The notes under the pieces are model-generated. The model did no database searches. It was not told where the DNA came from and saw only the letters and a program-made list of their open reading frames with translations. DNA of 64,000 bases, from the NCBI GenBank assembly GCA_964592105.1, contig CAZQBL010000007.1, positions 58,013 to 122,012 of the forward strand, given 5' to 3'. Every line of letters starts with the position of its first letter. Positions within the stretch are counted from its first letter, which is position 1. The stretch comes from an uncultured Gammaproteobacteria bacterium. Its GTDB lineage: Bacteria; Patescibacteriota; Patescibacteriia; UBA10025; JAHIVO01. Of the stretch, positions 11,555 to 62,045 are shown in pieces. The position numbers and the translations under genes are program-made.

Positions 11555-11794
<240 letters not shown>

Positions 11795-11916
11795 CTACTC
11801 GACATGTCTATTTTTAAATTTATTGTCGGTGCGTCTAAACCTAAGTTATTAATTTCTAATGTCTAAATTAGTCATGGAAATTTGGAATTTGATTAGAAAT
11901 TAGTATTTATTATAAA

Positions 11917-12753: not shown

Positions 12754-13030
12754 CTTTTTCTTTGGCTTTTTGTTGCTTGTTCTCTTTTGCTATTTGTCTG
12801 ATGTATTTGCCGGCAACGATAACAATGCCAATACATGAAATAACGAAGGCAAGGCCAGTTAAGGTCAGATAATACCAGGGTGCACTATTGTGTTTTTCGT
12901 CCAAATACCTGCCTAGAAATAATGCCGCCACAATCGGTACGACAATCCAACCAGTCACTTCGGCAAAGACAGTCATGGCCGGCTGCCACCAGGCTTTATC
13001 AGATTTTTTATCCTTATCTTCTTCTTCCAT
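12731..13030 (-). CDS. AtpZ/AtpI-like small membrane protein at the head of the atp operon
   Basis: 99 aa, two TM helices, charged ends. Overlaps the atpB start by 23 nt, as AtpI/AtpZ genes typically do. Confidence 0.4.
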   Translation of the reverse strand: MEEEDKDKKSDKAWWQPAMTVFAEVTGWIVVPIVAALFLGRYLDEKHNSAPWYYLTLTGLAFVISCIGIVIVAGKYIRQIAKENKQQKAKEKDERSNNK

Positions 13031-13220
13031 ATTTAGATTATAAAAACACTCCCTGAAGCTGTAGAGGGGGTCTTATGTAGTAAGACCAACACAACTCCAC
13101 TTTATCCACATTCCGCTTCTATTTTACGAAATAATTGCAAAAAAATCAAGGGGTTTATTTTAAAACCCTAGTCAAATTTACTTTTTGCTAATGTTAGCAA
13201 AAATTATTTACTATTTATCC

Positions 13221-13466
13221 TCAGCAGACAACCCTGGCCTTTGATCTAACAAAATAAACACCGTATGCGCCAATAATCATAGATAATACAATAAAATCAA
13301 CTGGAATAATCCGATATTGAGCACGACAGCCCATTTCAGCAGCACACAAACATTCGACAGTAACTCTTTTGGCAAATAATAATGTTGTACCAATTCCAAA
13401 CTTCGCTCCGGCATAACATGAGCAGCATTCCTGCTCAATCAATTTTACCGTAAATGATAAAATCAA
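13221..13466 (-). CDS. small Cys-rich membrane-anchored protein (start uncertain)
   Basis: Track ORF starts at a TTG inside a TM helix. An in-frame open stretch continues upstream to a TGA, and an ATG at 13527 is +1 out of frame across an A7 run (13515-13521). The likely intact product is MRKKIGLILILIAIAGLILSF...CCSC... Confidence 0.3.
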   Translation of the reverse strand: MILSFTVKLIEQECCSCYAGAKFGIGTTLLFAKRVTVECLCAAEMGCRAQYRIIPVDFIVLSMIIGAYGVYFVRSKARVVC

Positions 13467-13527
13467 TCCGGCAATGGCGATCAGTATTAATATCAGACCG
13501 ATCTTTTTTTCTCATCGTGGATAATAT

Positions 13528-14592
13528 TTATTCCTCCTTCGGCTTCTCCAGCTCCAGCGGCTCCACTTCCCCGCCCTTTTCAGAAATTTTCATAACATCC
13601 CTATCAACTTTCTTGAATTCTTTATACGCAGTATTGTATGTATTTACTGTTGTACCAAGCTGTATACCCAGCTTTTTCATGAATTCATCATAACTGATCA
13701 GGTGCTTAGCCAGTTGTTCAACATTTTTGCGAATCTCCTTGGCTGACTCTTCAATCTGCATGGCACGTAAACCTTCCATGACCGTCTGCAAATACGCTAA
13801 AAAGGAGGTTGGAGAAACAATAATGACGTGATACTTATTGGCCGCCCGTTGGATCAGATTTTCAGTGTCCTCGGTGATAGCCCCAACTTTATTAACCAAC
13901 AAATCGTAATAAATCGCTTCCGAGGGAATAAACATAAAAGCGAAATCAGTCGTATCTTCGTTGGGACGGATATATTTGGCAGTTTCCTGGATACGCATCT
14001 TCAAGTCATTGACGAAAACCTTCTCCAGGTTCTTCTTTTCGTTCTGATCGCGCGTCTCGGCCATACGATTATAATTTTCCAAACTGAACTTTGAATCAAC
14101 GGGTATCAGTTTATTTTTTACTTTCACCACAGCGTCAACTATTTCTCCGTCCTTGAATTTGTATTGCTCTTGGAAAGTGCCAGGCGGTAAAACATTTTTT
14201 AATAACGTGTTTAAAAAATATTCACCCACCATACCCCGTTGCTTGGGATTCTGCAAAATATCCTGAAGGTTCTGCAGCTGGTCAGAAAAGTTAAGCACCT
14301 GCCTATTTGTTTCATCAAGCTTGGTTAATTTTTCCGTCACATCCCTGACGATTTTATTGGTCTCGCCGATATGCTCGCGGAAGGCGCGAGTTGATTCGGC
14401 CATTTTTGTATCCAGGACGCGGGCCAGTTCCGTGCTTTTTTCATTTAATTGGCCAATGCGCTCCTCCAACCGGACCATTTTTTCATGGAATTCCTTAGCC
14501 GCGCCTTCGTCTCCCCGGCGGCGGGTATTGATAAAAACCATGATAATGCCGATGAGAATCAAGGCGCCTAAAATAATGGTGATGTAGTTCAT
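13528..14592 (-). CDS. rmuC: DNA recombination protein RmuC
   Basis: N-terminal TM helix and long coiled coil; C-terminal RmuC nuclease-like domain (FAFMFIPSEAIYYD...YHVIIVSPTSFLAYLQ). Confidence 0.8.
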   Translation of the reverse strand: MNYITIILGALILIGIIMVFINTRRRGDEGAAKEFHEKMVRLEERIGQLNEKSTELARVLDTKMAESTRAFREHIGETNKIVRDVTEKLTKLDETNRQVLNFSDQLQNLQDILQNPKQRGMVGEYFLNTLLKNVLPPGTFQEQYKFKDGEIVDAVVKVKNKLIPVDSKFSLENYNRMAETRDQNEKKNLEKVFVNDLKMRIQETAKYIRPNEDTTDFAFMFIPSEAIYYDLLVNKVGAITEDTENLIQRAANKYHVIIVSPTSFLAYLQTVMEGLRAMQIEESAKEIRKNVEQLAKHLISYDEFMKKLGIQLGTTVNTYNTAYKEFKKVDRDVMKISEKGGEVEPLELEKPKEE

Positions 14593-30396: not shown

Positions 30397-31128
30397 TCAT
30401 TGATTTTTATTAAGTTCGTCGTCGATGATTTTCTTGAATTCACTCAGCGATCTCGCACCCTCCACCTTCTGATCATTAATGAAGAATGTTGGTGTTGCCG
30501 TGACTTTATTGCTGCGCCCCACGGCCGTATCACTGAAAACCTCAGATCTCATCTGGTTGGAATCAAGGCATGATTTCATTACCTCCGAACTGATACCAGC
30601 CTGGGCGGCATAGCTTTGAAATTTTTGAACAGGATCGCTGGCACTCACCCATTCGGACTGATGCGAGAAGATAATATCGTAAAACTCCCAAAATTTTCCC
30701 TGATTATAAGCACATTCGCCGGCTTCCAGAGATTTTTCCGACCATTGATGTCCGATATTATAGCTATTAAAGACAATTCTAACTTGTTCGGGATAGATTT
30801 TGGCTATTTCCTTGACTATCGGAGCTGCAACCGCGCAGGCCGGACAGCTAAAATCAGAAAATTCGACTATAGTCACCTTGGCCGTTTCACTACCCAAGGT
30901 CGGATTGCCACTAACAGCCGCCAATAGATCGGTGTTGGTGTTATTACCGTTTGAGTCTGTAACAGCCAAGTAAACAAGCCCGCCGACTACTATGACTACG
31001 ACACAGATGACAATAACGGTGGCCATCTTTCTGCGTCGGTAGCGCTGGTTTCTTTGATCATCGATTGCCTGCTTTTTCAGCTCGCGTCGCTGACGCTTGG
31101 TTAGGCGCTGATCAATTTGATCTTCCAT
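30397..31128 (-). CDS. DsbA-like thiol:disulfide oxidoreductase, membrane-anchored
   Basis: N-terminal charged segment and TM helix; thioredoxin-fold active site FSCPACA; DsbA-like helical insertion. Confidence 0.7.
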   Translation of the reverse strand: MEDQIDQRLTKRQRRELKKQAIDDQRNQRYRRRKMATVIVICVVVIVVGGLVYLAVTDSNGNNTNTDLLAAVSGNPTLGSETAKVTIVEFSDFSCPACAVAAPIVKEIAKIYPEQVRIVFNSYNIGHQWSEKSLEAGECAYNQGKFWEFYDIIFSHQSEWVSASDPVQKFQSYAAQAGISSEVMKSCLDSNQMRSEVFSDTAVGRSNKVTATPTFFINDQKVEGARSLSEFKKIIDDELNKNQ

Positions 31129-33148: not shown

Positions 33149-35269
33149 TCACAATTCGGTATTAACGCTAGGATTAGTATCTGTATTTGTATTGGAATTG
33201 GTGTCGACCGACTTGATAACCCGGCTTTTACCGGTAACCAGTGGGTCGCTGGATAAATCCGTGGTCACGGCTGGTTGAATTTTTGAGATTTTTTCACTTG
33301 TAAAAGTATCTTCGGCTAAAAGCTGCGTTTCGCCTAATAGATTAAGTTCATGACCGATATCACCAGCCTGGGGTGTTACGCTTACAGAAAAACTAGCTTC
33401 CAGCTCGGCAATAGTCTGGCCGACCTGCGGGGGGATTTTATTTACGGTCCAACTGAGCATTCTGGTAGCAGGTTCATAGCTGAAATTACCAGCCGAAACC
33501 CTGGCATCGTTTACCCAATTCACTCCTGAAGGCAGTGTGGCGGACACAACCACATCCTTTATCTCATTGGCGTTATTCCGCAGATACCAGTAAATTTTAT
33601 AAACGGTGGTCTTACCCACTTCCGGCGGTAAAGGCCCTCTGCCCACTGGCAAATACTGATCATCATAATACCTGCCCTCGACCCGCAAATCAGCACGAGT
33701 TGTTAATTTGGTGGTAATATCATTGCTTTGAACCTCGAGCGGCAGGCCGTCTAAATCGACAACGTTATTTGAACTCGCTGCGGCTTTACTGATCAAAATA
33801 TAATTTTTATCACTAGGTCTCTGGGCCACCACTGAATCCTTGATTTTTATTTTGAAAGAAATCTCCCCACCCTCACCGGGCGGCACCGACTTCAGCGCCG
33901 GCATACTGCCTTCATTCCATTTAATTTTTCTACCGCTGACCTCGCCAGTCACCGGCATCTGGAGTGTGCTCCAATCAAAAAGCTCACCATCAAGCTCCAC
34001 GCTGACAATCATATTGTTAATGACGGACTGACTGTCATTCTGATATTTAACCAAATACTCCAGCTCCTCGCCGAAATGGCCGACATTATTGGTTGTGCTG
34101 CCATTTATGGATAAAGACAGGATGAGCTGAGGATTGACGATAAAAATTATAGCCGACTCTTCATTCTGCTTGTGATATTGCCTCTGGGCGTCCAAATAAC
34201 CCAATTCTGTTTTTAATTCACGGGCAGAACCCTCCTTGGCCGTAATTGTCCCCTGCCAGGATATTGTCTTGGTTTCTTTACTGTCGATTTTATCGAACTC
34301 CCAAACGTTTCCGGACTTAGTCGCTGGCGGATCAAAAGCTGAAACCAATAGATCGTCAGGCAGTACCAAAGTGAACTGTACATGTTCGAATTGTTCTTTA
34401 GAATTATTGGTAATAATTATTTTATAATCAGCCCGCTTGCCGCTGACGACCTTGGTCGGCACCGATAAATCTAAATCCAAAGCCGAACCCGAGATCACCA
34501 AACTAAAATCGCTAGCTCTCGTAAAATCCGAATTAAAGTTAGCCGGACGATAAATCATGACCAAGTGGAAATTTACTGAACTTCCTTTATCGGCGGTTAA
34601 GATGCCGATGATTTGAATTTTTTTTGCCGCCCCGGATTTTATACTATTCAATTTCCAGGTATTGCCGGCTTCGTCATCCGGCGAGGGCGAAGCACTGCGC
34701 AACTCAAAACTGGCCGGGGCCTGAAGTATCAGTTCAGCATTTTTTATATCCACGGCGCCGTTATTGACCGCTTCCATGGTAAAAGTGAATTCCTCCCCAG
34801 AAGCAATACTAGTCGGCAACTTGGTGTTGATAACGATATCCTCTTCATTGAACTTATCTCCCCGCTGAATAAAAAAATAAAAACCCGCCAGTGTGGCCAG
34901 TAATAATATTAATAAAATACCTATAATTAAACCAATAATTTTTTTCTTTCGGTTGGGGTCCCGCCTGACTATTGTTTTCATATCAACTTTATCTTCATTG
35001 TCAGTCCGGTAGAGAGCTGCAAAATTTTCCGCCGTGGCATCTTCGGATTCTTTTTTTCCTTTAGCTGGGCTATGCTCTTCTGCCGGGGTTATCACTATTT
35101 TTGTCACAGTTTCGGACTTTTCTGAATCGACCGCTTGTCCGGATAATAATTCTTTTATCTCCGCCCGGGCTCGCTCAAGTTTTTTATCCTCTTTTGAGCT
35201 GTCCTGGCCCGAATTTGTATTTTTGGTTTTCGTGGTGTTGGTGTTTGTATTTTTTAGTTGACGTGCCAT
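33149..35269 (-). CDS. large membrane-anchored extracellular repeat protein (DUF11/Ig-like beta domains)
   Basis: Charged low-complexity N-terminus (NTNTNT, K/E-rich), one TM helix (~res 115-135), then ~550 aa of beta-rich repeats; NTNTDTN low complexity at the C-terminus. Confidence 0.55.
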   Translation of the reverse strand: MARQLKNTNTNTTKTKNTNSGQDSSKEDKKLERARAEIKELLSGQAVDSEKSETVTKIVITPAEEHSPAKGKKESEDATAENFAALYRTDNEDKVDMKTIVRRDPNRKKKIIGLIIGILLILLLATLAGFYFFIQRGDKFNEEDIVINTKLPTSIASGEEFTFTMEAVNNGAVDIKNAELILQAPASFELRSASPSPDDEAGNTWKLNSIKSGAAKKIQIIGILTADKGSSVNFHLVMIYRPANFNSDFTRASDFSLVISGSALDLDLSVPTKVVSGKRADYKIIITNNSKEQFEHVQFTLVLPDDLLVSAFDPPATKSGNVWEFDKIDSKETKTISWQGTITAKEGSARELKTELGYLDAQRQYHKQNEESAIIFIVNPQLILSLSINGSTTNNVGHFGEELEYLVKYQNDSQSVINNMIVSVELDGELFDWSTLQMPVTGEVSGRKIKWNEGSMPALKSVPPGEGGEISFKIKIKDSVVAQRPSDKNYILISKAAASSNNVVDLDGLPLEVQSNDITTKLTTRADLRVEGRYYDDQYLPVGRGPLPPEVGKTTVYKIYWYLRNNANEIKDVVVSATLPSGVNWVNDARVSAGNFSYEPATRMLSWTVNKIPPQVGQTIAELEASFSVSVTPQAGDIGHELNLLGETQLLAEDTFTSEKISKIQPAVTTDLSSDPLVTGKSRVIKSVDTNSNTNTDTNPSVNTEL

Positions 35270-39405: not shown

Positions 39406-40044
39406 TTATAACATCACCGTTATTATCTCCACAAAAAATACCAGGATAACAAAAATAATAGAAAAGAAGTAAGTTACGGACACACTAATTTTACCAAACT
39501 TTAATCGGGGATAATAATTGCCAAAATCGGTATTCAACTCTGAAACTTTCACTACCGAATTAAACACGTACCACATAAATCTTATATGATCAATCCACCA
39601 GAAAAAGGCACTGACAATTATGACAAATAAATGCGTATCCCCGCCAAACATAATAAATGGTAAAGTCAGCAGTAAGGGCCACATTGCGCCGAACAAGGTA
39701 AGGTGATAGGTGGCGACTACCGGTATGCCCATTCGATGACCATAAACTAGTGCGGCCCAAGCCAGCGAAAAAGGACTGTGGAAATGCATGACGTCAGGCT
39801 GAAAATCTTGGATTATTTTTTTGACTTTGATAGGCAGAGCGTATGGGTATTGTTTATATATTGGCAATGTAAAAGACGGCACGCAGATCATAGGAGCGTC
39901 CTGGTGTTCTGCAGTGGGCAGTTTACCGGTCACAAATAAACTTGTTATCCGACGCTTATTAAAATAGTCGATCAGCCTATAAATATAACGAGCCACGCCG
40001 TCAACATTATATTCCATTGATTCGGCAAAGTGTAACAATCTCAT
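39406..40044 (-). CDS. GT4-family glycosyltransferase N-terminal-domain fragment fused to a hydrophobic tail (probable gene remnant)
   Basis: Residues 1-115 match the GT4 N-domain (DGVARYIY...FQPDVMHFHSPFSLAWAALVYGHRMGIPVVATYH). After ATYH the sequence becomes hydrophobic. No catalytic C-domain (EX7E) exists in any frame downstream. Confidence 0.35.
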   Translation of the reverse strand: MRLLHFAESMEYNVDGVARYIYRLIDYFNKRRITSLFVTGKLPTAEHQDAPMICVPSFTLPIYKQYPYALPIKVKKIIQDFQPDVMHFHSPFSLAWAALVYGHRMGIPVVATYHLTLFGAMWPLLLTLPFIMFGGDTHLFVIIVSAFFWWIDHIRFMWYVFNSVVKVSELNTDFGNYYPRLKFGKISVSVTYFFSIIFVILVFFVEIITVML

Positions 40045-40051
40045 ATTTTTT

Positions 40052-40342
40052 TTAATTATAATTCCCCGATATATTAGCCAGAAGCAATTTAATTATAATC
40101 GGTAAAAAAAGTTTAACCTGGCTCAGCTCTCCGCCTTTAACTAGACTAATACTTCTTTGGCTTAGATAAAATAATTGCGCTAGGAATCCAATTAAAGCCT
40201 TATTAGCCTTGCCCTTCTCCGGACAGATCGTGATTTTAATTTTTAAAAAATCGTCGAGAGTGTCGACGATCTGATTTTCTCTGGCATAAGTCAATAATTT
40301 AACCTGAACGATAACGCCATCTTCATGCTGGTGATACCACAT
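40052..40342 (-). CDS. DUF167 / YggU-family protein
   Basis: GKANKALIGFLAQLF...SISLVKGGELSQVKL matches the YggU consensus (GkAN.ali.fLa....v.iv.G..s..K). Confidence 0.6.
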   Translation of the reverse strand: MWYHQHEDGVIVQVKLLTYARENQIVDTLDDFLKIKITICPEKGKANKALIGFLAQLFYLSQRSISLVKGGELSQVKLFLPIIIKLLLANISGNYN

Positions 40343-40343
40343 A

Positions 40344-41480
40344 TTACTTCTTCAAGCTTTCGTACACCTTAATGGTTTCCAGCGCGCACTTCTCCCAGGA
40401 AAACTTCTTAGCTTGTTCGAGGCCCTTCTGCTTAAGACTATCCTGAAGTTTCTTATCCTCCAATAATCTTTGCAGAGCTCGGGCGATATCCTGTTCTTTC
40501 TCCGGATCAACCAATAAAGCTGCTTTCCCGGCTACTTCCGGCATTGATGAAACATTACTAGTAATTACCGGCGTACCTAGAGCCATAGCCTCCAAAACTG
40601 GCAGGCCAAAACCCTCATAACTAGAAGGGAAAGCAAAACAAACAGCTTTTTTCAGTAATTCTATTTTCTGATTTTGAGTGACATAGCCAATACATTTCAC
40701 CTGTTTGCTTAATCGTTCTGATTTAATCGCTGAAAAAATATCCTCACTTTTATAGCCGCTGGCACCAGCCAAGATCAGCTGATAAGCACTATGGGTCGGA
40801 CTGGCATCCAAAAAAATCTTAAAGGCACGCACTAAAGAAATTAAATTCTTTCGCGGCTCCAAAGTTCCAATAAAAAGAACGTATTTAGAGCCAATTTTGA
40901 ACTTGATTAACGAATCAAGGTCTTTGCTTTTCACTGGAATCTTATTAACTACTGCGCCTTCGTAGACAACCCTGATTTTCTTATCGGGGACATTGAAAAT
41001 TTCTTTGAGATCTTTTTTGGTACTTTGCGAGACGGCAATAATTCTGTCAGCTTTTTTCAGACTCTGTGGGACCAGCAGTTTGGTTGAGAAAATCTGCCCG
41101 GGGAACCAGGCGGGATTTTTGTAAATCGCCAGATCATGCACGGTCACAATCGATTTTTTCGGATACGTCAGGGGCAATGATGTAATGGGCGAATGAAAAA
41201 TATCCAGGCCTTCTTTCATCAGATAGGCGGTGATCAGCATGTGCGAATAAGCAAAGGGTAAAAATTTATTATACTGCGAAAAAGGGAAATGCTTTATCTT
41301 TATATTTTTTTGTTCGAATTCCCTGGTGTCCTGGACTCGCCAGTCGAAATACAAAACGTACTCGTTTCTCTTATCGAGCTTAAGTAAGTTTTTTACTAAA
41401 TAATATGTATAGTGACCGACACCGGCACGTTCGCCTATTTTGGGATTTAAAATTGTTCTGCAATCAATGCCTATTCTCAT
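40344..41480 (-). CDS. GT4-family glycosyltransferase
   Basis: 378 aa, two Rossmann-like halves; C-terminal [30 protein letters not shown] (EX7E region). Confidence 0.8.
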
Positions 41481-46513: not shown

Positions 46514-47706
46514 TTACCTGCTTAGTGGTTTGAATATCTTCCGGTATTCAATCAGTAGATACGAACCTATAAGCAGCGTGCCAACTCCTAGCATAATCAA
46601 GGCCACTGGCAAATTTACAACTTTTAAAACAAGGCCGAAAATTCCCAAAAACACGAACTGGGCCAGAGCATCAACCGCCCACTGCACGGAACTGACCGTG
46701 GCGCGGCGTTCTGATTCCAAATGATCATTCAGATACTGTCCCATAAATGGACGCAAATATCCTCTCGTTACATTCTGGAATAAAACCAGCCAGACCATGG
46801 GCAGAATCGTCAGGGCGCCCATTAAAATGATGGGCAAAGCGGTGATCAGGACCATTACAGTAAAACAGGTCATTGGTCCAAAGCGCTTAGCTATCTCATG
46901 GGCAAAATAACTGAAAAAAGCAGCTACAACGTTCAGGGCGAAGAATATCCAACCATAATACTCAAGCGGCAATGACACCAGTTCGAAATAAGGATTGTAG
47001 GTAAAAACCATACTTTTCCAATCACGCCCAATAAGGCAGTGTAGAGGATTATCCATTTAACCCGTTTGTTTTTGGCCACAAATAATACGGACAACTTCAT
47101 TATATCCTGGATTTTTTTCTTGGCGATGTCCTTGTCGGTACGCGGTGGTTCAACCATGAAACAAATAATTATGCAGGTGGCCAATAAACTTGGGATCCCC
47201 AATAATACAGGTAAGCGGATATTGGTCGCGGCTAAATATCCCGCCACCGGCGAGGCCAAAGAGAACAGCAAAAAACGATAAGCATTAGACCTGCCGTCAA
47301 CCAATTTATAATGATCACTCCTTTGCTGGGTAGCCAAAGTATCGTAAAGCAGTGCGGAGTCGGCTCCAGTAATCAGAGAAAAGCCAAAGGTCCACAGAAT
47401 GTTGGCGATCCAAATTTCCTGGGAACTACGAGCCAAGCCGAACATTAAACAATCCCCCAACAGCAGAATACTTCCCGCCAGCATAGTTTTCTTCCTGCCG
47501 ATTAAATCCGCAATTGCCCCCGTGGGAATCTGCAGAACAAACAGTAAAATTACACAGACCGATTCCATCTGATAGATTTGTGCCAGGGACATGGCAGAAA
47601 CTTTTTGAATGTAAATGATCAATACCGGCCCCCAAAACAGCGGCTCCCTCAATGCTTGATAGAACTTATACAGCAAGACATTACTCTGTACTTGTCGCAA
47701 ATTCAT
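46514..47706 (-). CDS. MFS transporter, reading frame interrupted by a single-base shift at an A5/T5 run (47007-47011)
   Basis: Two overlapping ORFs (46933..47706 and 46514..47056) encode the N-terminal 7 TM and C-terminal 5 TM of one MFS protein. Reading T6 instead of T5 on the coding strand gives ...GKVWFFTYNPYFELVSLPLEYYGW... Confidence 0.55.
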
Positions 47707-49583: not shown

Positions 49584-49625
49584 AAAAATAAGGCCTAACT
49601 CAGATAAGTTGGGCCTTTTTTTATT
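49584..49625. terminator. bidirectional Rho-independent terminator between convergent genes
   Basis: AGGCCTAACT-CAGATA-AGTTGGGCCT hairpin followed by TTTTTTTATTTG on plus; A-rich tract before it serves the minus strand. Confidence 0.5.
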
Positions 49626-49638
49626 TGCTCAATCAACT

Positions 49639-51855
49639 CTACTGCACTACGCCATTTACCAGCCTCACTGTATTACTGCAAGCCACCTGATCAACCTGAT
49701 CCACGACGCAAATCGAATAATAATGAGTTCCCTTACTTAAATCAACTTCAACTGCGCGCGTACCAGTTCTATTACCTTCATCAGTATAGGTCGCGGTTGT
49801 TTTTTCCGAAATCGGAGTCAAATAACCATCAGCCGGGTAAACGGGTGTGGACTTGGTTTGCGACCAGACGATTTTATAATACTTGAAATCTTTTTCGGTT
49901 GAAACAGTCCAATTCAGCGTCATTTTTTCGCCGGCAAAACTTCCGGCCAAGGATACCGACGCCGGAGCTGTATTATCGTTAGTGGCCGTCACCCGCTCCA
50001 CGTTGCCGCAATAAATCTGATCACCAACCGCGCAAATACGGTAATAATAAGTTTTACCCTTGACCGAGGCGTAATCCCGGTAGCTCTCCCCGCCTTTTTC
50101 ACGCACAGTAATATAGCCATCATCCGGATATTTCAGATTTGGATTTATTTCAGAGCGAACGACTTTATAATATTTGAAACCGGGAATGTTTGAACGATCG
50201 CCCCACCACAAACCCACGCCGTCTTCACCCGCCTGGGCGGATAAATTCGGCCCTGAATATTGGGGCGTCACGCTTTTGGCTGTGACCGAAACATTATTGC
50301 TGTAAACCAAGCACTTACCGTTGCCGTCATACTGGCACACTCGGAAATGGTACTTCTTTCCATCGGTTACAGCCCAGGTGTAACTTCTCACCGAGTTATC
50401 GGTCAAATACTTGAAATCATTGCCCGGATAAACCGGATTGGAGTTTTCGCCCTTGACTACTTTAAAGCCGTTGGAAATAATCAGATTCGTGATCTTCCAG
50501 CTCAAATGAATGCCGTCGTCTTTAGCTTCTCCAACTAATCTTATTCCGGTCTCTACCTCATCTTCGACTTTCGTCTCTTTTTTAATGACATTAGGATTGG
50601 TAACCGAATGTTTTTTTCCTTTCATGTAAACGATATTGGAACAGAAAACTTTATCTCCGGACATGACTTCGCACACCCGATAATAATAAGTCTTATCCAC
50701 GCTGACATCGGTGTCAATAAAACTGTTTTGGCCTTTATCCTGTTGGAAAATATAACCATCTTCCGGATATTTCAAATTGGCATTACTCTCCGAGCGAACC
50801 ACCTTATAATGCAGGAGGGCGGCGCTAGTAGATTCGTTCCAGGATAAATGCACACCGTCGTCTTCAGTAGCCGCTTCAAGTTTCAAGGGCGTAGCTGAAG
50901 CCTGGATATCATAAAAAATTTTTATTTCTTTGATAGTTCTTTGTCCGTCAGCATTTTCCGCTGTAATGATAATGATATTTTTATTGGCACTCAAATTGAT
51001 CTCTGAATTGAATTGACCGTTATTATTGGTGACTTCCTGATCATTAATCTTCAACTTGGCGGCCACATCACTGACCGTACCGATAACAGTGACCCAAGCA
51101 TTGGTAACATGACTGCCGTCTTTGGGACTAGTAATTGTCAAGGTTGGACCGGCGTATTCTTCAAGGATTCCAAGTTTATCCGTTGATTTTGAATCTTCTT
51201 CCTTGTTCCAGGTGTACCAGTCATTAGTTAGATCCTTTCGATTAATATCACCAACATTTATATCGTCCTTACCATTCTCAATGGTGGCGGTTTTGCCTTC
51301 TGCTACCTCCCTCTCTTCTTTTTCGGTCACGACTTTAACGTTGCTTTCCACGACATTAACATCCACCGCGCCCTCGGATTGAATCGTGTCAAAGGCCGTA
51401 CCCAAAGCCTGGATAGTTACTTCTCCGCTTTTTACCTCATAGAGACGGGACAAATTCTTGGCCACACGGCTATAGCTAGCTCCAGATAGCTGAGTAATAG
51501 TCACATTTTGTTTATTCAAACTGGTCAAAAATATTTCAGTATTATAGCCGGCTCTTATTTTGTCACCATTTTCTATCTCAATAATGGCTTTACTGTCATA
51601 GCCGGTTTTTAAACTGTCGCCAGTATGTAAAACCGTATCGGTCTCAGCTGCCTGCCAATCAGAACCTGCGAGCCGAACCTGAACATCGCCTTTCTGGTAA
51701 GCCAAAGTCGCAGCTAAGTCCTGATTCTGGGAAGTTACTTGGACCAAAGTTGGTTGAATAATGTCCTTATTCTGTATGTACCAGAGCACAGCCCCTCCCA
51801 AGATTAAGACAGCCAAAGAGACGGCAATTATGATTGGAGCAATTTTTTGCTGCAT
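49639..51855 (-). CDS. cell-surface protein: signal anchor, FecR-like domain, Ig-like region and four tandem FN3-like repeats
   Basis: N-terminal TM helix; FecR-like segment (GDSLKTGYDSKAIIEIENGDKIRAGYNTEIFL...). Four ~90-aa repeats share the [HY]YK[VI]V[RW]S...YP.DGY...YYYR[VI]C pattern. Confidence 0.65.
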   Translation of the reverse strand: MQQKIAPIIIAVSLAVLILGGAVLWYIQNKDIIQPTLVQVTSQNQDLAATLAYQKGDVQVRLAGSDWQAAETDTVLHTGDSLKTGYDSKAIIEIENGDKIRAGYNTEIFLTSLNKQNVTITQLSGASYSRVAKNLSRLYEVKSGEVTIQALGTAFDTIQSEGAVDVNVVESNVKVVTEKEEREVAEGKTATIENGKDDINVGDINRKDLTNDWYTWNKEEDSKSTDKLGILEEYAGPTLTITSPKDGSHVTNAWVTVIGTVSDVAAKLKINDQEVTNNNGQFNSEINLSANKNIIIITAENADGQRTIKEIKIFYDIQASATPLKLEAATEDDGVHLSWNESTSAALLHYKVVRSESNANLKYPEDGYIFQQDKGQNSFIDTDVSVDKTYYYRVCEVMSGDKVFCSNIVYMKGKKHSVTNPNVIKKETKVEDEVETGIRLVGEAKDDGIHLSWKITNLIISNGFKVVKGENSNPVYPGNDFKYLTDNSVRSYTWAVTDGKKYHFRVCQYDGNGKCLVYSNNVSVTAKSVTPQYSGPNLSAQAGEDGVGLWWGDRSNIPGFKYYKVVRSEINPNLKYPDDGYITVREKGGESYRDYASVKGKTYYYRICAVGDQIYCGNVERVTATNDNTAPASVSLAGSFAGEKMTLNWTVSTEKDFKYYKIVWSQTKSTPVYPADGYLTPISEKTTATYTDEGNRTGTRAVEVDLSKGTHYYSICVVDQVDQVACSNTVRLVNGVVQ

Positions 51856-51907
51856 GAATTTTAATTAATACTTAATTACTTAATTTCAACTTACTTTCTT
51901 ATCTTAA

Positions 51908-54900
51908 TCAATTCTCATCAACATTGATAATCCTGACCTGAGGCCCTCCAGAGCTTCTGGGTATAGTTAAAAGCTCGTCTGCTCCGTCGCCGTCAACATC
52001 ACCACCAGCTAGATTGACGCCTCCCAAAAAGTTGAAGGCATAGACATAGAACTGCTTTTGCATTATTGCCTTGATGTCATAGACCTTGACCAAAGGTTTA
52101 GCATTAAGGCCGACCCCCACCAGCAACTCTTTGGTGCCGTCACCGTTGGTATCGACTCCGGCTAAGGAGACACCACCGCGGTAATCAGCGGAAAAAGCGT
52201 AAAAGCCGGGTGATAAACGGTGAATATTACCCGCTCTTAGTTGAAAAATCTGGATGTGCGGAGCGCCGACTTCGGGGCCGGTCACTATCTCATCCCTGCC
52301 ATCGCCGTCAATGTCGGCTGTGGCAACTTTGATGCCACCCCTGAAATTCCTGTCATAAGCGAAAAAATTGACCCTGATATTGCCATACTGATCATAGACT
52401 AGGACATGGGGGCCGCCACCCTGGCTAGCAGCCACGATAATGTCTTTAACCCCATTGCCGTCGATATCGCCGCAGGAGAGGTTGGCGCCGCCGCTAAATT
52501 TACCGTCCAAGGCAAAAAAGCTAAGCGCAATTTCCTTGCCATAAGCGTTTAAAATTCTGATTTGCGGCCGACCACCTTTCCCGGGTACCGTAATGATCTC
52601 GTCCAAACCGTCGTTATTGACATCACAAGCCGTAACCCTGACTCCAGTGCGCAAAGTTGAGGAGTAGGCGTAAAATTGCGCTTTGACATTGCCCGCGCTG
52701 TCAAAAACTCTGACCTGAGGAGCCATGCCATGACCAGTACCGGTTACTATTTCATCGTTAGCTCCACTCAAAACATTTCCAGAAGCCATATAATAACCAC
52801 CGCGCATGGTCGAAGCATAGGCCATAAAACCGGTACTACTGGCCGTTTTTATGGAATCAACCGCAAAATTATTAGTTGTCTCTGGAGTCTTTTGTGAATA
52901 CTCATAATAAGTATCCGGAGTCGTGCCGCTGGAATCGGTAATACCCAAAGCGCGCTCGCGAGTAGATTTCTGTCCATCAACATTGACTACCGTCACGTCG
53001 TACCAACCTGCATTTAATTTTGACAAAGGTAATTTAACAGCCAAAGACGTGCCTGTTTGTACGTATGTTTTCTCTCCCTCAATATCCCCAAAAAAAGTTT
53101 TAGCACCATAGCGAAAGTTCGTGCCCTTGATCCCGACTTGCAAGCCCGAACCTTTGTCCCAAGAAGGATTCACCACGCTTGGCGAAACCGAGCTGACTGT
53201 GGGCGCGGGATCAGCGTATGGTGCCGTGCCGGTAATATCAATTTTTCTGATCATGTCATTCCAATTGTCAGTCACATACAGACTGTTTGTCACGGTGTCA
53301 ACCAAAAGTCCTTTGGGATTATTAAATTCCGCCGTGGTGCTGGCGCCATTCTTGAAACCACGCTGACCAGAACCGGCAATTAATTTGGAAAGTCCAGTTG
53401 AGGGGTTAAGCTGTCTAATACGCTGCGAACCGACCTCAGAAAAATATAGCATGTTGTCGGGACCCATTTTAACGTATTCAGGATAAGAAAGTACGGCGTT
53501 GGAACCAAGACCTTCTTGATAGCCGGCCGAACCGTTGCCTGCTAAGGTAGAAACTGCACCGGTGGCGATAACGATTTTTCTAATCCGATGATTATTAGAG
53601 TCAGCCACGTATAAATTGCTGCCTGAAGCGTCCATGGTAATGCCAAATGGCCTGTTAAATTTAGCCGCTGCACCAATACCGTCGGCAAAGCCAGCCTCAC
53701 CAGAACCAGCCACCAGCCAGGTTTGACCATCAGAAATTCGCACTTTACGAATACGATTATGACCAGTATCGGTAACATACAAATAAGTATTAGTAGGGTC
53801 GATAACCAAACCGGATGGAGTCTGAAAATAAGCGCAACCCGCCACCCCGGTCGATTCCTGGTCCGCGCATTTCACACCCTCCTGATAGCCGTTGTCTTCC
53901 GTGCCGGCTATATTTGGCAGACCAGCACCGCTAACCAAATAGCTGTATACTGGCGAGGCTTCCAGATTAATACCGCGAATTCTGTTATTCCATCGGTCAG
54001 CGATATAAAGCCTGGTGCCCGAAGAATTGATAACAATTCCCTGAATAGCGCTAAATCTGACCGGCCAGACAGGTGTAGTTGGTGAGTCCACCCCCTCATG
54101 ATAACCATCGACACTGTTACCAATTAAATGCGCTACTTCACGGGTAGCTACAGTAATACGTCTTATTTTATTATTGTCAGCAACGTAAATATACTTCCGA
54201 TCCGGACTCATGACCATGTCGTACGGCCGGCCGAACAGGGCCTCCGAGGCACTGCCGTTACGGTTCCCAAAACGCTCTTTACCGGCCACAAGGTTATTGT
54301 CATGCCAGTTATTTTTATTAAAACGATAAATATTGCCGTTGCCACCGAGATATAAATAATCGCCGGAAATTCTGATGCCGGAATCGACGTTCATGCCGAG
54401 CATTGAAGCGTCATAATAAAACTGCGAAGTTACTCTCGAAACTAGGTCAAGCTTGCGGATAATGCCAGTACGGGTTTGATCCTGGTCAACCACATAAATA
54501 ACATTGGCATCATCGTCAATTACAATCCCGCCCAAGTGATAAAACTGGGCTTCGGCAAAAGGGCCTTCCGCATAACCAGCCGTGCCACTGCCTATGGTAT
54601 CCTGAACTCTGCCACTGGTCGCCGACAATTTCAAAATACGGTAATGCCCGGCATCCAAAACATAAATAGAACTTCCGTCAGAGGTTATGTCCATTTTGGT
54701 TGGAGCGGAGAGGTCCGTACTGTTAAGCGTGATCATGGTACCGGTGGACAAAGTAAATCTTTTCAAAGCATTGCTTCCGGAATCAAGAATATACAGATAA
54801 TCACCGTAAACAGCAATACCAATCGGCGCCTTCAGTTGGTCAGCCGTTACGACGGTGGAAACTATACCACCGGCAATTTTTCGAATGGTGTGACTTGAAC

Positions 54901-55264
54901 TATCAGAAACATAAATCTCTCCCCCGCCGCCGATGGCTATACCTTTGGGCAGGGCAAACTCGGCCTGGGTGACGGCACCGTCCGTGTTGCCATAACTACC
55001 AGTACCGGCCAAGGTGGAGATAATGCCGCTATTATCAATGGCCCGAATGACGTTATTATAGGTATCGGCAATGTACATGGTGCCACCTGAATCAAAAACC
55101 AAATCCTCGGGAAAATCCAGATAGGCGCTAACGGCCTGACCGCCGTCACCGTCATACAATTTGCCCAAGTACGTGGTTACATCACCGTACGCGGCCTGAG
55201 CGCTGGGCGCGTACAAAGACAACATGGCTACCAAACTTAAAATAGTAATGATTTTTTTAGCCAT
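51908..55264 (-). CDS. giant secreted surface protein with NHL repeats, an IPT/TIG-like domain and five FG-GAP/VCBS repeats
   Basis: Signal peptide. At least 7 NHL-type blades (YVADTYNNVIRAID, YVSDSSSHTIRKIA, YIADRWNNRIRGINL, YVTDTGHNRIRKV, YVADSNNHRIRKIV, YVTDNWNDMIRKID...). C-terminal D.DGDG..E repeats (DVNNDGLDEIIT, DIDGNGVKDIIV, DIDGDGRDEIVT, DTNGDGTKELLV, DVDGDGADELLT). Confidence 0.7.
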   Translation of the reverse strand: MAKKIITILSLVAMLSLYAPSAQAAYGDVTTYLGKLYDGDGGQAVSAYLDFPEDLVFDSGGTMYIADTYNNVIRAIDNSGIISTLAGTGSYGNTDGAVTQAEFALPKGIAIGGGGEIYVSDSSSHTIRKIAGGIVSTVVTADQLKAPIGIAVYGDYLYILDSGSNALKRFTLSTGTMITLNSTDLSAPTKMDITSDGSSIYVLDAGHYRILKLSATSGRVQDTIGSGTAGYAEGPFAEAQFYHLGGIVIDDDANVIYVVDQDQTRTGIIRKLDLVSRVTSQFYYDASMLGMNVDSGIRISGDYLYLGGNGNIYRFNKNNWHDNNLVAGKERFGNRNGSASEALFGRPYDMVMSPDRKYIYVADNNKIRRITVATREVAHLIGNSVDGYHEGVDSPTTPVWPVRFSAIQGIVINSSGTRLYIADRWNNRIRGINLEASPVYSYLVSGAGLPNIAGTEDNGYQEGVKCADQESTGVAGCAYFQTPSGLVIDPTNTYLYVTDTGHNRIRKVRISDGQTWLVAGSGEAGFADGIGAAAKFNRPFGITMDASGSNLYVADSNNHRIRKIVIATGAVSTLAGNGSAGYQEGLGSNAVLSYPEYVKMGPDNMLYFSEVGSQRIRQLNPSTGLSKLIAGSGQRGFKNGASTTAEFNNPKGLLVDTVTNSLYVTDNWNDMIRKIDITGTAPYADPAPTVSSVSPSVVNPSWDKGSGLQVGIKGTNFRYGAKTFFGDIEGEKTYVQTGTSLAVKLPLSKLNAGWYDVTVVNVDGQKSTRERALGITDSSGTTPDTYYEYSQKTPETTNNFAVDSIKTASSTGFMAYASTMRGGYYMASGNVLSGANDEIVTGTGHGMAPQVRVFDSAGNVKAQFYAYSSTLRTGVRVTACDVNNDGLDEIITVPGKGGRPQIRILNAYGKEIALSFFALDGKFSGGANLSCGDIDGNGVKDIIVAASQGGGPHVLVYDQYGNIRVNFFAYDRNFRGGIKVATADIDGDGRDEIVTGPEVGAPHIQIFQLRAGNIHRLSPGFYAFSADYRGGVSLAGVDTNGDGTKELLVGVGLNAKPLVKVYDIKAIMQKQFYVYAFNFLGGVNLAGGDVDGDGADELLTIPRSSGGPQVRIINVDEN

Positions 55265-56480
55265 ATGTTTTTATTATTAATAAACTTTGCCAATTAATTA
55301 TCAATAAAAACATTATTAGAGCGGCGCTTCCCCATTTTTTCAAAAATCGTGGCAACAACTGCAACAAGCCGACCGCCATGATCAAACCGTAAATGCCGAT
55401 AATCGAAAACATATACCTACCCTGGGGCTGGTAAAAACTCAAATTATAACCGAAAACTCCGACTAGAATAACAGCCGCCAAAATAATCATCAAAAGTATT
55501 GACGCCCGCCTGTCCTTATCCATAATTTTGAATTTATTAAATAAGAAAGCAATAAAACCGATTATGGCTAGCAGCCCCAACACCTCCACAATTACATAAT
55601 AGACCCTCGGCAAAGCCAGATCAAAATACCCAAACCTGGCCCAAAAACTTTCATATAACGTTTTCAGCCAATTCCAAATGCCTGATAAATTTAAAAAATC
55701 CCGGTGCTGCTCTGAATACCACAAATCTTTCAAATAATTAAAACCAGTCAAACTGCCGTAAAGCCTCTGGTTCCTTGCCAGCCACCAAACCATGACCGCG
55801 TACAATGGAGAAAAAACCAACAAGCTGTGCAACAACTGTTTTTTTCCTGATCTCCAAAGAGCTGTTATAAAAAGGACTGACACGAATGGCCATAAAACCG
55901 TTTTTGTAAGAAAAGCGGCTGTTCCGACCAGGCAAAAAACAAGCGTCCGGACCCAATTCCAACCTCCTTTGACGATGAACAAAATCAACAACAACAGACA
56001 CAAAGCTGCCAACATATTGGTCAGAACATCGTTATTAATAATTCCCGACATATAAATGAACTGGGGATTCAGGGCAACCAGAGCTGTGGCCGTCAAAGAT
56101 ATCAAGTCATTACCCAAAAATAACTTGCGCATCATAAAATAAGTCATGATAATTACGGTGCTGGATATTATCAGTCCGAAGAACCGCAGGGCCACTACGC
56201 TCCCCCGTTCTGACCATGATTTTGTCAGTTGGTAAATCGGCTGAACTAACCAGTAATACAATGGCGGCTGGTGCGATTCTTTGGTTACCTTTTCTGAAGT
56301 TATGACGGGTAATTTGCCGGTCTGACCGACAGTTTTTACATAATAGTAATGCATACGTTCATCCGGCGCCTTAAAAGTATTGGTGAATAAAATGAACAAA
56401 GAACCAAAACCAAGATATAAAAGTAAAAACAAAACAAAGGTGATGACTGAGTAGTTTTTCCGTATATATTGAATCGTCAC
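55257..56480 (-). CDS. GT-C fold membrane glycosyltransferase (GT39/GT83, PMT/ArnT-like)
   Basis: ~11 TM helices; the first extracytoplasmic loop carries KAPDERMHYYY (DE motif of GT-C enzymes). Overlaps the downstream surface-protein gene by 8 nt. Confidence 0.5.
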   Translation of the reverse strand: MTIQYIRKNYSVITFVLFLLLYLGFGSLFILFTNTFKAPDERMHYYYVKTVGQTGKLPVITSEKVTKESHQPPLYYWLVQPIYQLTKSWSERGSVVALRFFGLIISSTVIIMTYFMMRKLFLGNDLISLTATALVALNPQFIYMSGIINNDVLTNMLAALCLLLLILFIVKGGWNWVRTLVFCLVGTAAFLTKTVLWPFVSVLFITALWRSGKKQLLHSLLVFSPLYAVMVWWLARNQRLYGSLTGFNYLKDLWYSEQHRDFLNLSGIWNWLKTLYESFWARFGYFDLALPRVYYVIVEVLGLLAIIGFIAFLFNKFKIMDKDRRASILLMIILAAVILVGVFGYNLSFYQPQGRYMFSIIGIYGLIMAVGLLQLLPRFLKKWGSAALIMFLLIINWQSLLIIKTYG

Positions 56481-56756
56481 AAGTGAAAAAAATAATTACG
56501 GGTTACACAAAAACTAGCCCTGGTTAATCCGGTGCTTGTGTCGTATTTATTATAAATACTTGTCATAATATAATTTTTTTTGATTTTTGTTTTTCGTTTA
56601 ACTAATACTATTATATCATAAAAAAAGAGTTTTAGCAAGGTCGCCTTGCTTATTTTTATTTGTTAAAAACTTTTTAAAATTGTTCATTCCATAAATTACA
56701 AATAATGGTGGGCGATAAAAAAGGGGCCGCACGTTTTTCGTGTGACCCCGTAAGGT

Positions 56757-57482
56757 TCAGGTGTCGCAGTAGACAGTGAAAATAAAAGGATAGTCTTCCT
56801 CGGCATCGTAAATAAACACTCTTGCTATCTCGGTTTTTTTAGTCATCGGAGGAAAATAAAGTTGCGCCCTGATTGTCTGATCATGATTCAACAACAGCTT
56901 TTCGTTAATGGGCACTATGTCAATAGATTTGAGGTACAAAACCTTGCCATGACCATAGATAATATGAGTTCTCTGGTCTGCGCTGACATACACCTTCGAT
57001 GTCCGCGGATTGCTCCAGGATACCGTTACTCTGGTGAATTCTGTTGTCATTTTTATTTCCTCAAATTTCAGTGTGTAGTTTTTAGCCTGAGGGGTAACAA
57101 TGTGCTGTCTGACAATTACTGTTTTTTCAGAAACTGGACGAGAACCACTTATATCCTCAAGTAGATGCCCGCCGTATTTCACAACCACCCATCCCACAAT
57201 TACTATAATAGCAATCGTGAATAGAGTGGAAATGATTCTGGAAACTCCGGATTTCTTTGAGACCCGGACACCAGATGCCGGGGCAGATTTCCTGGCTCCC
57301 ATCTCGGGTTTGGCCAACGGCTTTTTTTCTTTTGACTCAATTTCCTCAAGATCGGCCGCCCACTGTTTAGCAAACAGTGAAAAGCCGCCAATCACAAGTG
57401 AAGTAAAGAGGAGGCCAGTTATGACCAACACTGGGAAGGGTAATTGCCAAACTTCTTTGAATAATCTAAATAATTCTGCCAT
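56757..57482 (-). CDS. membrane protein with a C-terminal beta-rich domain (possible NfeD-like partner of the adjacent SPFH protein)
   Basis: Two TM helices, a Lys/Ser-rich linker, then a beta-strand-rich ~130-aa domain. Ends 10 nt downstream of the SPFH gene stop on the same strand. Confidence 0.35.
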   Translation of the reverse strand: MAELFRLFKEVWQLPFPVLVITGLLFTSLVIGGFSLFAKQWAADLEEIESKEKKPLAKPEMGARKSAPASGVRVSKKSGVSRIISTLFTIAIIVIVGWVVVKYGGHLLEDISGSRPVSEKTVIVRQHIVTPQAKNYTLKFEEIKMTTEFTRVTVSWSNPRTSKVYVSADQRTHIIYGHGKVLYLKSIDIVPINEKLLLNHDQTIRAQLYFPPMTKKTEIARVFIYDAEEDYPFIFTVYCDT

Positions 57483-60875: not shown

Positions 60876-62045
60876 TTGAGCAAAATTACCCTCACTGCCA
60901 TCAAGGCAGACATCGGCAGCATCGGCGGACACATAAAACCCTCACAAGCAATTCTGGAAGCGGTCAGAACGGCTATTGGCGAAGAAAAGGCGATAACAGA
61001 CTTCCGCATCACCTACACTGGCGACGATATCCTGATACTCATGGCGCATCATGAAGGGATCAACAGCTGGGTTATCCATGCGGCCGCCGATCGTGTTTTC
61101 CGCCAAGCCACGGAAATTGCCAAACGACAGGGCTTGTACGGGGCCGGTCAGGACCTTTTGACCGACGCTTTTTCCGGAAATGTCAAAGGTGCGGGTCCCG
61201 GAATCGCCGAGATGGAATTCGAGGAAAGGCCAAATGAGGCCTTTATCGTCTTCGCCGCGGACAAAACCGATCCCGGTGCTTACAATCTGCCTTTGTACCT
61301 GGCTTTCGCCGATCCCATGTACAACGCCGGCTTACTACTGACCGCGCACATGCAAAAAGGCTTCACTTTTTCCATCATCGACGTCAATTACGCGGAATGC
61401 AAGCAATGCGGAAAATTCCATTTTACCGATCAGCGCTGCGCTGAGGCCACGGCTAACAACCCCAAAGGCGACCGGCTCATAAAACTGTCGGCGCCCGAGG
61501 ACATCTACAAAATCGCCGCTCTGCTCCGCGACGGCGAAAGATTCGCCATCCAGTCCATCCATTCCCGATATGATGGTTCCCAAGCTGCCTCTGTCTCCAC
61601 CACCCGGCTCCACAACATCGCCGGCAAATACACAGGTAAGGACGATCCGTGCGCCATTGTTCGGGTCCAAGGCTCATTTCCAGCGACGGGAGAAGTGCTT
61701 TCCCCCTTTGCTCTGGGACATTTGGTGGGCGGCTTCATGCGCGGTTCGCATAACGGCCCGCTGATGCCGGTAAAACAAAATGAGATTATTTCCTTTTTCG
61801 ACGGCCCGCCGATTGTTTCCTGCGCCGCTTACTGCGTCAAGGACGGCAAGCTGACCGAAGCTGTTGATGTTTTTGACCACCCCGTATGGCACTATATCCG
61901 CCAGGAAGTTGCCCGCAAGTCAGTGGATATCAGACGTCAAGGATTCTTCGGTGCGGCCATGCTGCCCATGACCGAGCTTGAATATGGCGGCATTGTCGCC
62001 ATCCTCCAATCTCTTGACACACAGTTTGAGATTGTTCCAAGCTAA
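60876..62045 (+). CDS. fbp: fructose-1,6-bisphosphate aldolase/phosphatase (class V FBPase, bifunctional)
   Basis: TTG start after AAGGAGG. The N-terminus SKITLTAIKADIGSIGGH...GDDILILMAHHEG...LYGAGQDLLTDAFSGNVKGAGPGIAEMEFEE matches the archaeal-type FBP aldolase/phosphatase signature (KADIGS..GH, Y..GQDL.SD.FSGN..G.GPG.AE). The gene is ~54% GC against ~40% in its flanks. Confidence 0.85.
   Translation: MSKITLTAIKADIGSIGGHIKPSQAILEAVRTAIGEEKAITDFRITYTGDDILILMAHHEGINSWVIHAAADRVFRQATEIAKRQGLYGAGQDLLTDAFSGNVKGAGPGIAEMEFEERPNEAFIVFAADKTDPGAYNLPLYLAFADPMYNAGLLLTAHMQKGFTFSIIDVNYAECKQCGKFHFTDQRCAEATANNPKGDRLIKLSAPEDIYKIAALLRDGERFAIQSIHSRYDGSQAASVSTTRLHNIAGKYTGKDDPCAIVRVQGSFPATGEVLSPFALGHLVGGFMRGSHNGPLMPVKQNEIISFFDGPPIVSCAAYCVKDGKLTEAVDVFDHPVWHYIRQEVARKSVDIRRQGFFGAAMLPMTELEYGGIVAILQSLDTQFEIVPS

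Follow-up and report, generated by a model that had tools for sequence, protein, structure and literature searches.

In Gtr systems (GtrA/GtrB/GtrC), a GT2 enzyme loads polyprenyl phosphate, a flippase moves the loaded carrier, and a GT-C enzyme performs the transfer outside the membrane. Patescibacteria are ultra-small, mostly uncultured, and probably attached to hosts, and their surface biology is almost unknown. The DUF2142 enzymes WpsI and WpsJ of Lactococcus move a C55-P-linked oligosaccharide onto a glycan (PMC9574508, PMC12599335). In Streptococcus mutans, the accessory gene cnm shares a transcript with pgfS-pgfM1, the pgf genes themselves being core, and WapA is a further target of Pgf (PMC5856776). 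The Caldicellulosiruptor bescii enzyme Cbes_1864 glycosylates CelA, the product of a nearby gene (PMC6151902). In the present study, we analyzed a 64-kb stretch of DNA from an uncultured member of the Patescibacteria (contig CAZQBL010000007.1, positions 58,013 to 122,012; hereafter the window), in which the gene of a 407-amino-acid (aa) GT-C protein lies beside the genes of two surface proteins, referred to here as the NHL protein and the FecR/FN3 protein. A GT-C gene beside surface-protein genes is an arrangement type that is already known, and this locus is an uncharacterized example from a poorly studied phylum. Literature searches that combined Patescibacteria with GT-C or NHL/FG-GAP gave no relevant work, nor any on the pair of surface proteins described here.

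We assign a probability of approximately 0.4 to the reading that the acceptor of the GT-C enzyme is a non-protein component of the envelope, which may be a glycolipid or a glycan attached to the wall or to a lipid. The adjacency to the surface cassette would then reflect inherited gene order and tight packing, and not a dedicated enzyme-substrate pair. The GT-C gene would be an accessory gene heading a more widely conserved cassette, which encodes a secreted NHL-TIG-FG-GAP triple propeller and a membrane-anchored FecR-Ig-FN3 stalk protein.

The GT-C enzyme and its transcription unit

The 407-aa protein matched PMT_2 (PF13231) in Pfam at residues 71-223, with 35.3 bits (gathering cut-off, 26.1; E 1.7e-8). 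The sequence-only reading, an earlier interpretation made without database searches, had named GT39, GT83, and DUF2142 as the families to search for with hidden Markov models. None of these was found on the protein itself: it did not match PF02366 (PMT, GT39), it did not match DUF2142 (PF09913) at E <= 0.01, and it had no NCBIfam match at E <= 0.01, and so no match to ArnT (GT83). However, DUF2142 was detected in 11 of its 14 closest relatives (best E 9e-13), PMT_2 in 5/14, and PMT in 2/14; most relatives of the protein carry DUF2142 and/or PMT_2. An exhaustive search recovered 5588 homologues at E <= 1e-3. The AlphaFold (AF2) model was very confident (predicted local distance difference test [pLDDT] 96.2, predicted template modeling score 0.94), with approximately 11 transmembrane (TM) helices and, in loop 1, short juxtamembrane ones, but with neither a soluble nor a C-terminal domain; the hydropathy profile showed approximately 10 TM segments. 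The large C-terminal periplasmic domain with WWDYG that characterizes oligosaccharyltransferases (OSTs; STT3/PglB/AglB, GT66) was also absent.

The DE motif that the sequence-only reading had placed in loop 1 was confirmed. TM1 corresponds to helix 10-32 of the model, and D40-E41 comes directly after it, where extracytoplasmic loop 1 begins; R7/K8 at the N terminus fit an N-in topology and hence an outward-facing loop 1. The pair did not vary among the 14 closest relatives and reached at least 90% conservation across 106 aligned homologues. In this alignment, P39-D40-E41, H44, E68, Q71-P72-P73, Y75-Y76, R99, N150-D151, K193, and Q351-x-Q353-G354-R355 were near-invariant. By analogy with GT-C enzymes, in which the catalytic acidic residues are found at this place, D40 and E41 are the putative catalytic residues. 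The possibility that the protein belongs to a membrane family other than glycosyltransferases did not hold in view of the PMT_2 match and the GT-C fold. We concluded that it is a genuine GT-C-fold glycosyltransferase, PMT/ArnT-like, of the PMT_2/DUF2142 group.

The structural neighbors of the model were ALG12, PMT, AftB, and ArnT. In size, the protein resembles ALG3/PIG-M/PimE, and it has no soluble domain for acceptor binding. Its sequence identity to the solved structures of ALG12/ALG3/PIG-M/PMT4 was only 11-15%, and it does not contain the MIR domain of PMTs. ALG12/ALG3/PIG-M act on lipid-linked glycans, whereas PMT4 acts on proteins. Therefore, the fold match covers both types of acceptor and does not identify the acceptor.

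The three genes are consecutive on the minus strand, and each of their proteins has many full-length homologues (Table 1). The 8-nt overlap of the GT-C gene, ATGGCTAA, is present as proposed; however, it does not involve the 3' ends of two genes, since the 3' end of the GT-C gene meets the 5' end of one gene, that of the NHL protein. A gap of 52 nt without a terminator separates the NHL and FecR/FN3 genes. The promoter-like site lies approximately 130 nt upstream of the GT-C start, in an AT-rich 276-nt gap that follows an upstream gene for a 241-aa protein; this consensus match covers 10/12 positions, with TG before the -10 hexamer. The hairpin downstream likely terminates both the three-gene unit and a convergent gene, which encodes a 353-aa protein. 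Because of the overlap, the short gap, the promoter-like site upstream, and the hairpin downstream, the three genes very probably form a single transcript with the GT-C gene first, in agreement with the co-transcription proposed earlier. Small overlaps and tight spacing are frequent among unrelated genes of the window (e.g. TatD/CvpA/MetRS and RecO/IleRS), and the GT-C/NHL overlap alone is therefore weak evidence for a shared function. The estimate that the three proteins account for about 10% of the window was arithmetically correct (10.7%), but this share is not unusual, and the two surface proteins are large rather than giant.

Table 1. Features of the GT-C/NHL/FecR locus (window positions)
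Feature	Position	Strand	Description	Basis
GT-C gene	55257..56480	-	407 aa, GTG start	Listing of open reading frames (ORFs)
NHL protein gene	51908..55264	-	1118 aa	ORF listing
FecR/FN3 protein gene	49639..51855	-	738 aa	ORF listing
GT-C/NHL gene overlap	55257..55264	-	ATGGCTAA, 8 nt; TAA = GT-C stop, ATG = NHL start	
Promoter-like site (predicted)	56610..56638	-	TTGCTA-17 nt-TATAAT, TG extension	Consensus match
Hairpin, likely bidirectional terminator	49590..49617	either	GC-rich, between A-run and T-run	
D40-E41 codons (gat gaa)	56358..56363	-	Acidic pair, putative catalytic site	Sequence and alignment
Flexible linker of the NHL protein, residues 776-810	52835..52939	-	13 Ser/Thr in 35 residues	pLDDT drop

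Gene neighborhoods and the two surface proteins

Relatives of the locus were reached through the GT-C protein (L002-L006 and L167-L169) and through the NHL protein (L170-L175). In L004/L005 (82% GT-C identity) and L003 (59%), an NHL orthologue (88-89% and 72% identity, respectively) lies directly downstream of the GT-C gene and the 8-nt junction is identical. In L006 (36%), the GT-C gene is preceded by an ArnT-like PMT_2 gene (558 aa, ArnT match 117 bits), a GT2 gene with ArnC and, second, S. mutans PgfS as its best NCBIfam matches, and a flippase-like LPG_synthase_TM gene. Downstream lies a double-NHL-propeller orthologue of 653 aa (34%), separated by 93 nt that include its own -10-like element. 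The GT-C gene of L002 (47%) occupies the same slot (GlmS-ComEC-MBL ... MFS-L20-IF3-SmpB) with NHL and FecR absent. L168 (34%) has no NHL on its contig of 5.6 kb, and the GT-C genes of L167/L169 (30%) lie inside a GT2/GT4/Wzx/Wzy_C/DUF4012 polysaccharide cluster without NHL.

When the locus was approached through the NHL protein, GT-C was found within 10 kb in 0/4 lineages: L170/171 (61% NHL identity; tblastn E 1e-4), L174 (57%), L175 (57%), and the Kerfeldbacteria L172/173 (51%). The NHL and FecR/FN3 genes of L174 are adjacent (7960-13614), and the gene order is that of the window minus GT-C: ComEC-MBL-Band_7-small membrane protein-NHL-FecR/FN3-convergent gene-L20-IF3-SmpB-ArgRS-GT4-IleRS. A FecR/FN3 orthologue also directly follows NHL in L175 (6968-12652). 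In 10 pairs of NHL and FecR clusters, the longest contigs were of equal size, some of only 8-16 kb; NHL-FecR adjacency appears to be widespread, with L174 and L175 as the direct cases. Linkage of FecR/FN3 to GT-C was seen only in the window's own species. At 90% clustering, approximately 9 clusters of GT-C orthologues (at least 34% identity) stand against approximately 100 clusters of NHL orthologues, and the exhaustive search gave approximately 10 GT-C orthologue representatives.

These results revealed that conservation centers on the NHL and FecR/FN3 genes as a pair, which keeps a constant position with ComEC/MBL on one side and L20/IF3/SmpB on the other. The GT-C gene is accessory to this pair and its linkage is clade-restricted. 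The linkage to large surface proteins expected in the sequence-only reading was thus present at 82, 59, and 36% GT-C identity, but absent in four NHL lineages and in L002. Since GT-C and NHL each occur without the other, their relationship is not an obligatory one between enzyme and substrate. Moreover, the adjacencies in the window, L003, and L006 lie in one inherited block and count as roughly one event.

As a background, we used 160 loci (2.1 Mb) of distant GT-C homologues from scans of public genome and metagenome contigs, which generic peptide patterns had saturated (25-31% identity, mostly Chloroflexota, with neither the genome of the window nor its close relatives). An NHL- or FG-GAP-like ORF was found within 10 kb at only 2/160 loci; therefore, the family as a whole does not show GT-C/NHL adjacency. 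At one of the two, L106, the gene of an NHL+TIG orthologue (44% identity) precedes, in the same orientation, those of a TuaH-like GT4, a 653-aa PMT_2 GT-C that is unrelated to the GT-C of the window, and a GT2, which constitutes one further, partly independent association. The NHL architecture of L106 is split (1106-12259), with a 579-aa FG-GAP protein upstream of a 759-aa NHL+TIG protein, and a DUF2142-like 573-aa GT-C is placed divergently.

Other membrane proteins near the slot were considered as GT-C relatives. The 539-aa protein directly upstream of GT-C in L003 (3237-4856) showed no relation to GT-C by Pfam, NCBIfam, or hhalign against the GT-C profile, and these searches assigned it to no family. 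It has approximately 12 TM helices and ends in a soluble domain, and it may be a highly divergent GT-C. The membrane proteins upstream of NHL in L170, L174, and L175 are not GT-C-like and belong to an unannotated family with N-terminal TM helices, a C-terminal beta domain, and no Pfam match. The window encodes a protein of this type at 56757-57482 (-). The family recurs just upstream of the GT-C/NHL slot in L170 (8479-9855), L002 (8931-9899), and L175 (4711-6573); the proteins of the window and L170 share 25% identity over 92 aa, and the L002 and L175 members were grouped by eye.

The domains named earlier for both surface proteins were recovered by Pfam. The NHL protein matched NHL (E 4.6e-35), TIG (688-766), and FG-GAP. 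It consists of a signal peptide (1-24, cleavage AQA|AY), NHL beta-propellers at approximately 29-330 and 345-680, an IPT/TIG domain (688-775), a linker (776-810), and an FG-GAP beta-propeller (811-1113). Its model has a pLDDT of 92.9, and the linker is the only flexible segment, with residues 800-803 below 50. The protein is predicted to be secreted and has no membrane or wall anchor. A Foldseek comparison of the model with the PDB was discarded as a functional lead because it returned only generic tandem propeller arrays (LRP2/4/6, SOQ1, and NHLRC2). The family of approximately 1100-aa NHL-TIG-FG-GAP proteins had approximately 100 full-length clusters among the 120 listed (38-64% identity). 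The named relatives of both surface proteins come from 'Patescibacteria group bacterium', Candidatus Kerfeldbacteria, and Candidatus Andersenbacteria.

The FecR/FN3 protein has a type-II membrane anchor (TM 7-28), a FecR domain (81-174), a Glucodextran_B/Big_7 Ig-like domain (237-316), and fn3 matches. Self-alignment resolved four FN3-like repeats at approximately 319-738. A Cys pair (YYYRxC...C) is conserved in every repeat and is suggestive of disulfides. Approximately 30 full-length clusters of this family were found (47-82% identity). Because the NHL protein has no anchor and the FecR/FN3 protein is membrane-anchored, the two may form a surface complex. The window also encodes a DsbA-like protein (30397-31128). 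In the Kerfeldbacteria locus L172 (4713-9974), the NHL orthologue is immediately preceded by two DsbA-like genes and an LGT gene, with a third DsbA-like gene approximately 4.5 kb further upstream.

The description of the two proteins as Ser/Thr-rich was overstated. Their Ser+Thr contents are 14.8% (NHL) and 15.9% (FecR/FN3) against a mean of 10.9% in 29 other proteins of the window. A search for low-complexity Ser/Thr tracts found none in either protein, and the FecR/FN3 protein contains no Ser/Thr-rich linker. The Ser/Thr content of the NHL linker is equal in orthologues without GT-C, and overall Ser+Thr is the same in both groups. The sequences of the two proteins give no sign of heavy O-glycosylation. 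N-glycosylation was also considered, since the N-X-S/T density of the FecR/FN3 protein is slightly high (8 sites), and it was rejected because the enzyme is not an OST. Another large and probable surface protein, a 706-aa DUF11/DUF7619 protein (33149-35269, -), has the highest Ser+Thr content of the window (17%).

The acceptor and the wider window

The GT-C enzyme would take a sugar from a polyprenyl-phosphate carrier at the outer face of the membrane, like ALG12, PMT, AftB, and ArnT, and pass it to an extracytoplasmic acceptor. From the enzyme family and the neighbors in L006, the carrier would be loaded by a GT2 of the ArnC/GtrB/PgfS type and then flipped. The ORFs of the window include no GT2 or flippase-like gene and only GT4 genes (39406-41480), so that the GT2 and flippase genes of this genome would lie outside the window.

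A glycan acceptor is consistent with the role of the DUF2142 enzymes described above and with decorating systems of the Gtr/Csd type, with the polysaccharide clusters that contain the 30%-identity relatives, and with the small size of the enzyme, which has no extra domain. The absence of a dedicated pair is consistent with NHL + FecR without GT-C (L174 and L175), NHL without GT-C (L170/171 and L172/173), and GT-C without NHL (L002 and L168). However, several points weigh against this reading. Lineages with as little as 59% GT-C identity retain the same GT-C/NHL junction, adjacency is still found at 36%, and the two proteins diverge in parallel (36 and 34%). The NHL orthologue of L106 lies beside an unrelated PMT_2 GT-C and a GT2. 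The protein of the window itself matches PMT_2, not DUF2142, and Pmt4, a protein O-mannosyltransferase, was the second-best structural match of its model. The protein-glycosylating GT-Cs of S. mutans cnm-pgf and C. bescii Cbes_1864-celA adjoin the gene of their substrate, and the Pgf enzyme and substrate genes likewise occur without each other (PMC5856776, PMC6151902). Furthermore, no pathway for an acceptor glycan was identified in the window.

The same points bear on a tentative but serious alternative, that of a Pgf-like operon. The GT-C enzyme would then transfer a polyprenyl-phosphate-linked sugar to Ser/Thr of the co-translated, Sec-exported NHL protein and possibly of the FecR/FN3 protein. 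The modification would stabilize or mask the surface proteins and would likeliest be placed in linker 776-810 or the TIG domain; if the NHL protein is a substrate, the linker may be the most plausible site of O-glycosylation. The operon structure and its conserved overlapping junction, the adjacency at three levels of GT-C identity, the rarity of NHL-like neighbors at distant loci, the PMT_2 match, and the similarity to Pmt4 all favor this possibility. It is also favored by the second, unrelated GT-C/GT2 module beside the NHL orthologue in L106, by the PMT_2 + PgfS/ArnC-like GT2 module directly upstream in L006, and by the precedents of cnm with pgfS-pgfM1 (PMC5856776) and of the GT39 Cbes_1864 near celA (PMC6151902). 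However, GT-C was lacking within 10 kb in all four lineages sampled through NHL, L002 and L168 retain GT-C in the absence of both NHL and FecR, and the three adjacencies belong to one syntenic block and are not independent events. There are no Ser/Thr-rich tracts, and lineages without GT-C do not differ in linker composition. The closest relatives of the enzyme are of the DUF2142 type, a group known only from glycan acceptors, the enzyme has no soluble acceptor-binding domain, and the linkage of FecR/FN3 to GT-C was seen only in the species of the window. A glycosylation link between the GT-C enzyme and the NHL/FecR proteins is a plausible and reasonable hypothesis that is weakened by these distribution data.

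A more specific proposal is that this minimal 407-aa DUF2142/PMT_2 GT-C of one Patescibacteria sub-clade is a dedicated protein O-glycosyltransferase, translationally coupled to a conserved triple-propeller substrate that is held on the cell by a FecR-FN3 stalk. We consider this to be unlikely. If true, DUF2142 would gain its first member with a protein acceptor and the candidate phyla radiation its first defined glycoprotein system, which may tune attachment to host cells.

A partnership without a substrate role appears improbable. The GT-C enzyme would build or decorate a surface glycan, and the anchor-less NHL/FG-GAP protein would bind or process it, as with surface-layer proteins and secondary cell-wall polymers or with WpsI and its co-polymerase WpsH; co-expression would serve stoichiometry. 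The signal peptide and missing anchor of the NHL protein, its tandem propellers, which resemble the ligand-binding arrays of LRP4/6 and hybrid two-component glycan sensors, the recurrence of NHL orthologues beside glycosylation modules in L006 and L106, and the translational coupling of GT-C and NHL fit such a role. However, NHL orthologues mostly occur without GT-C, the conserved neighbor that could anchor the NHL protein is the FecR/FN3 protein and not GT-C, and no carbohydrate-binding module was detected by Pfam or NCBIfam. It is very improbable that the 407-aa protein is an inactive, degenerate GT-C fold acting as a scaffold or transporter at a locus unrelated to glycosylation, to which the modest Pfam score (35 bits), the missing NCBIfam match, and the lack of a donor-synthase gene in the window might point, because D40, E41, H44, E68, Q71-P73, Y75-Y76, R99, N150-D151, K193, and R355 are invariant or nearly so in 106 homologues, the model is canonical and very confident, and the L006 orthologue lies within an intact GT2/flippase-like/GT-C module.

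If the GT-C enzyme modifies the NHL/FecR proteins, the locus would provide a concrete and testable glycoprotein system for Patescibacteria. The more durable result is the syntenic pair of an NHL-TIG-FG-GAP protein (approximately 1100 aa; 40-64% identity) and a FecR-Ig-FN3 protein (approximately 740 aa; 47-82% identity), which is well conserved in many Patescibacteria; the two proteins are therefore candidates for a conserved surface structure.

The remainder of the window contains housekeeping genes (ATP synthase, several aminoacyl-tRNA synthetases, ClpB, TGT, RecO, ComEC, tmRNA/SmpB, and IF3/L20), nearly all in the same orientation. PADLOC found no defense-system match for the three proteins or their neighbors. 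At 39406-40044 (-), a 212-aa ORF corresponds to a GT4 enzyme over the N-terminal half only (Glyco_transf_4); it adjoins a complete 378-aa GT4 (40344-41480, -) and may be a truncated duplicate. The MFS transporter gene (46514-47706, -) is divided into two ORFs of 257 and 180 aa, which overlap by 124 nt and both match MFS_1; its counterpart in L002 is intact (397 aa). This indicates a frameshift and, therefore, a pseudogene or an assembly error. The genes of ComEC and the MBL-fold protein flank that of an archaeal-type fructose-1,6-bisphosphatase (FBPase_3, class V; E 3e-145), which has the opposite orientation (60876-62045, +), an arrangement shared by the Kerfeldbacteria locus L172.

Comparison with known systems

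As in the case of C. bescii Cbes_1864, the window holds a bacterial GT-C outside Actinobacteria, the gene of which lies close to a secreted-protein gene (PMC6151902). However, Cbes_1864 is a 556-aa GT39 with substrates that carry long Ser/Thr/Pro linkers (PMC6151902), whereas the GT-C of the window has 407 aa, no PF02366, and neighbors without such linkers.

The S. mutans Pgf locus (cnm-pgfS-pgfM1-pgfE-pgfM2) resembles the window in that the gene of a PMT_2-type polytopic protein is co-transcribed with a surface-protein gene, and in that enzyme and surface-protein genes occur independently, in S. mutans among strains (PMC5856776). In contrast, neither the operon nor the rest of the window contains a GT2, an epimerase, or a second membrane protein. 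The neighbors of the GT-C gene encode globular propeller and FN3 proteins, and those of Pgf are collagen-binding adhesins with Thr-rich repeats.

The lactococcal CsdA/CsdB/CflA follow the same three-component logic as Gtr (PMC9574508), and this module is intact around the L006 orthologue, whereas only the GT-C is present locally in the window. WpsI/WpsJ lie inside the cwps polysaccharide cluster and add oligosaccharides to rhamnan (PMC9574508, PMC12599335), and the gene of the window lies in no glycan cluster. The context of L006 suggests a monosaccharide donor, unlike the oligosaccharide donor of WpsI/J. The GT-C of the window resembles these DUF2142 proteins (PMC9574508, PMC12599335) in being small and polytopic and in lacking a large soluble domain, and it would likewise use a lipid-phosphate-linked donor outside the membrane. 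The two share the same Pfam neighborhood, and the 30%-identity relatives of the GT-C of the window lie in comparable polysaccharide clusters.

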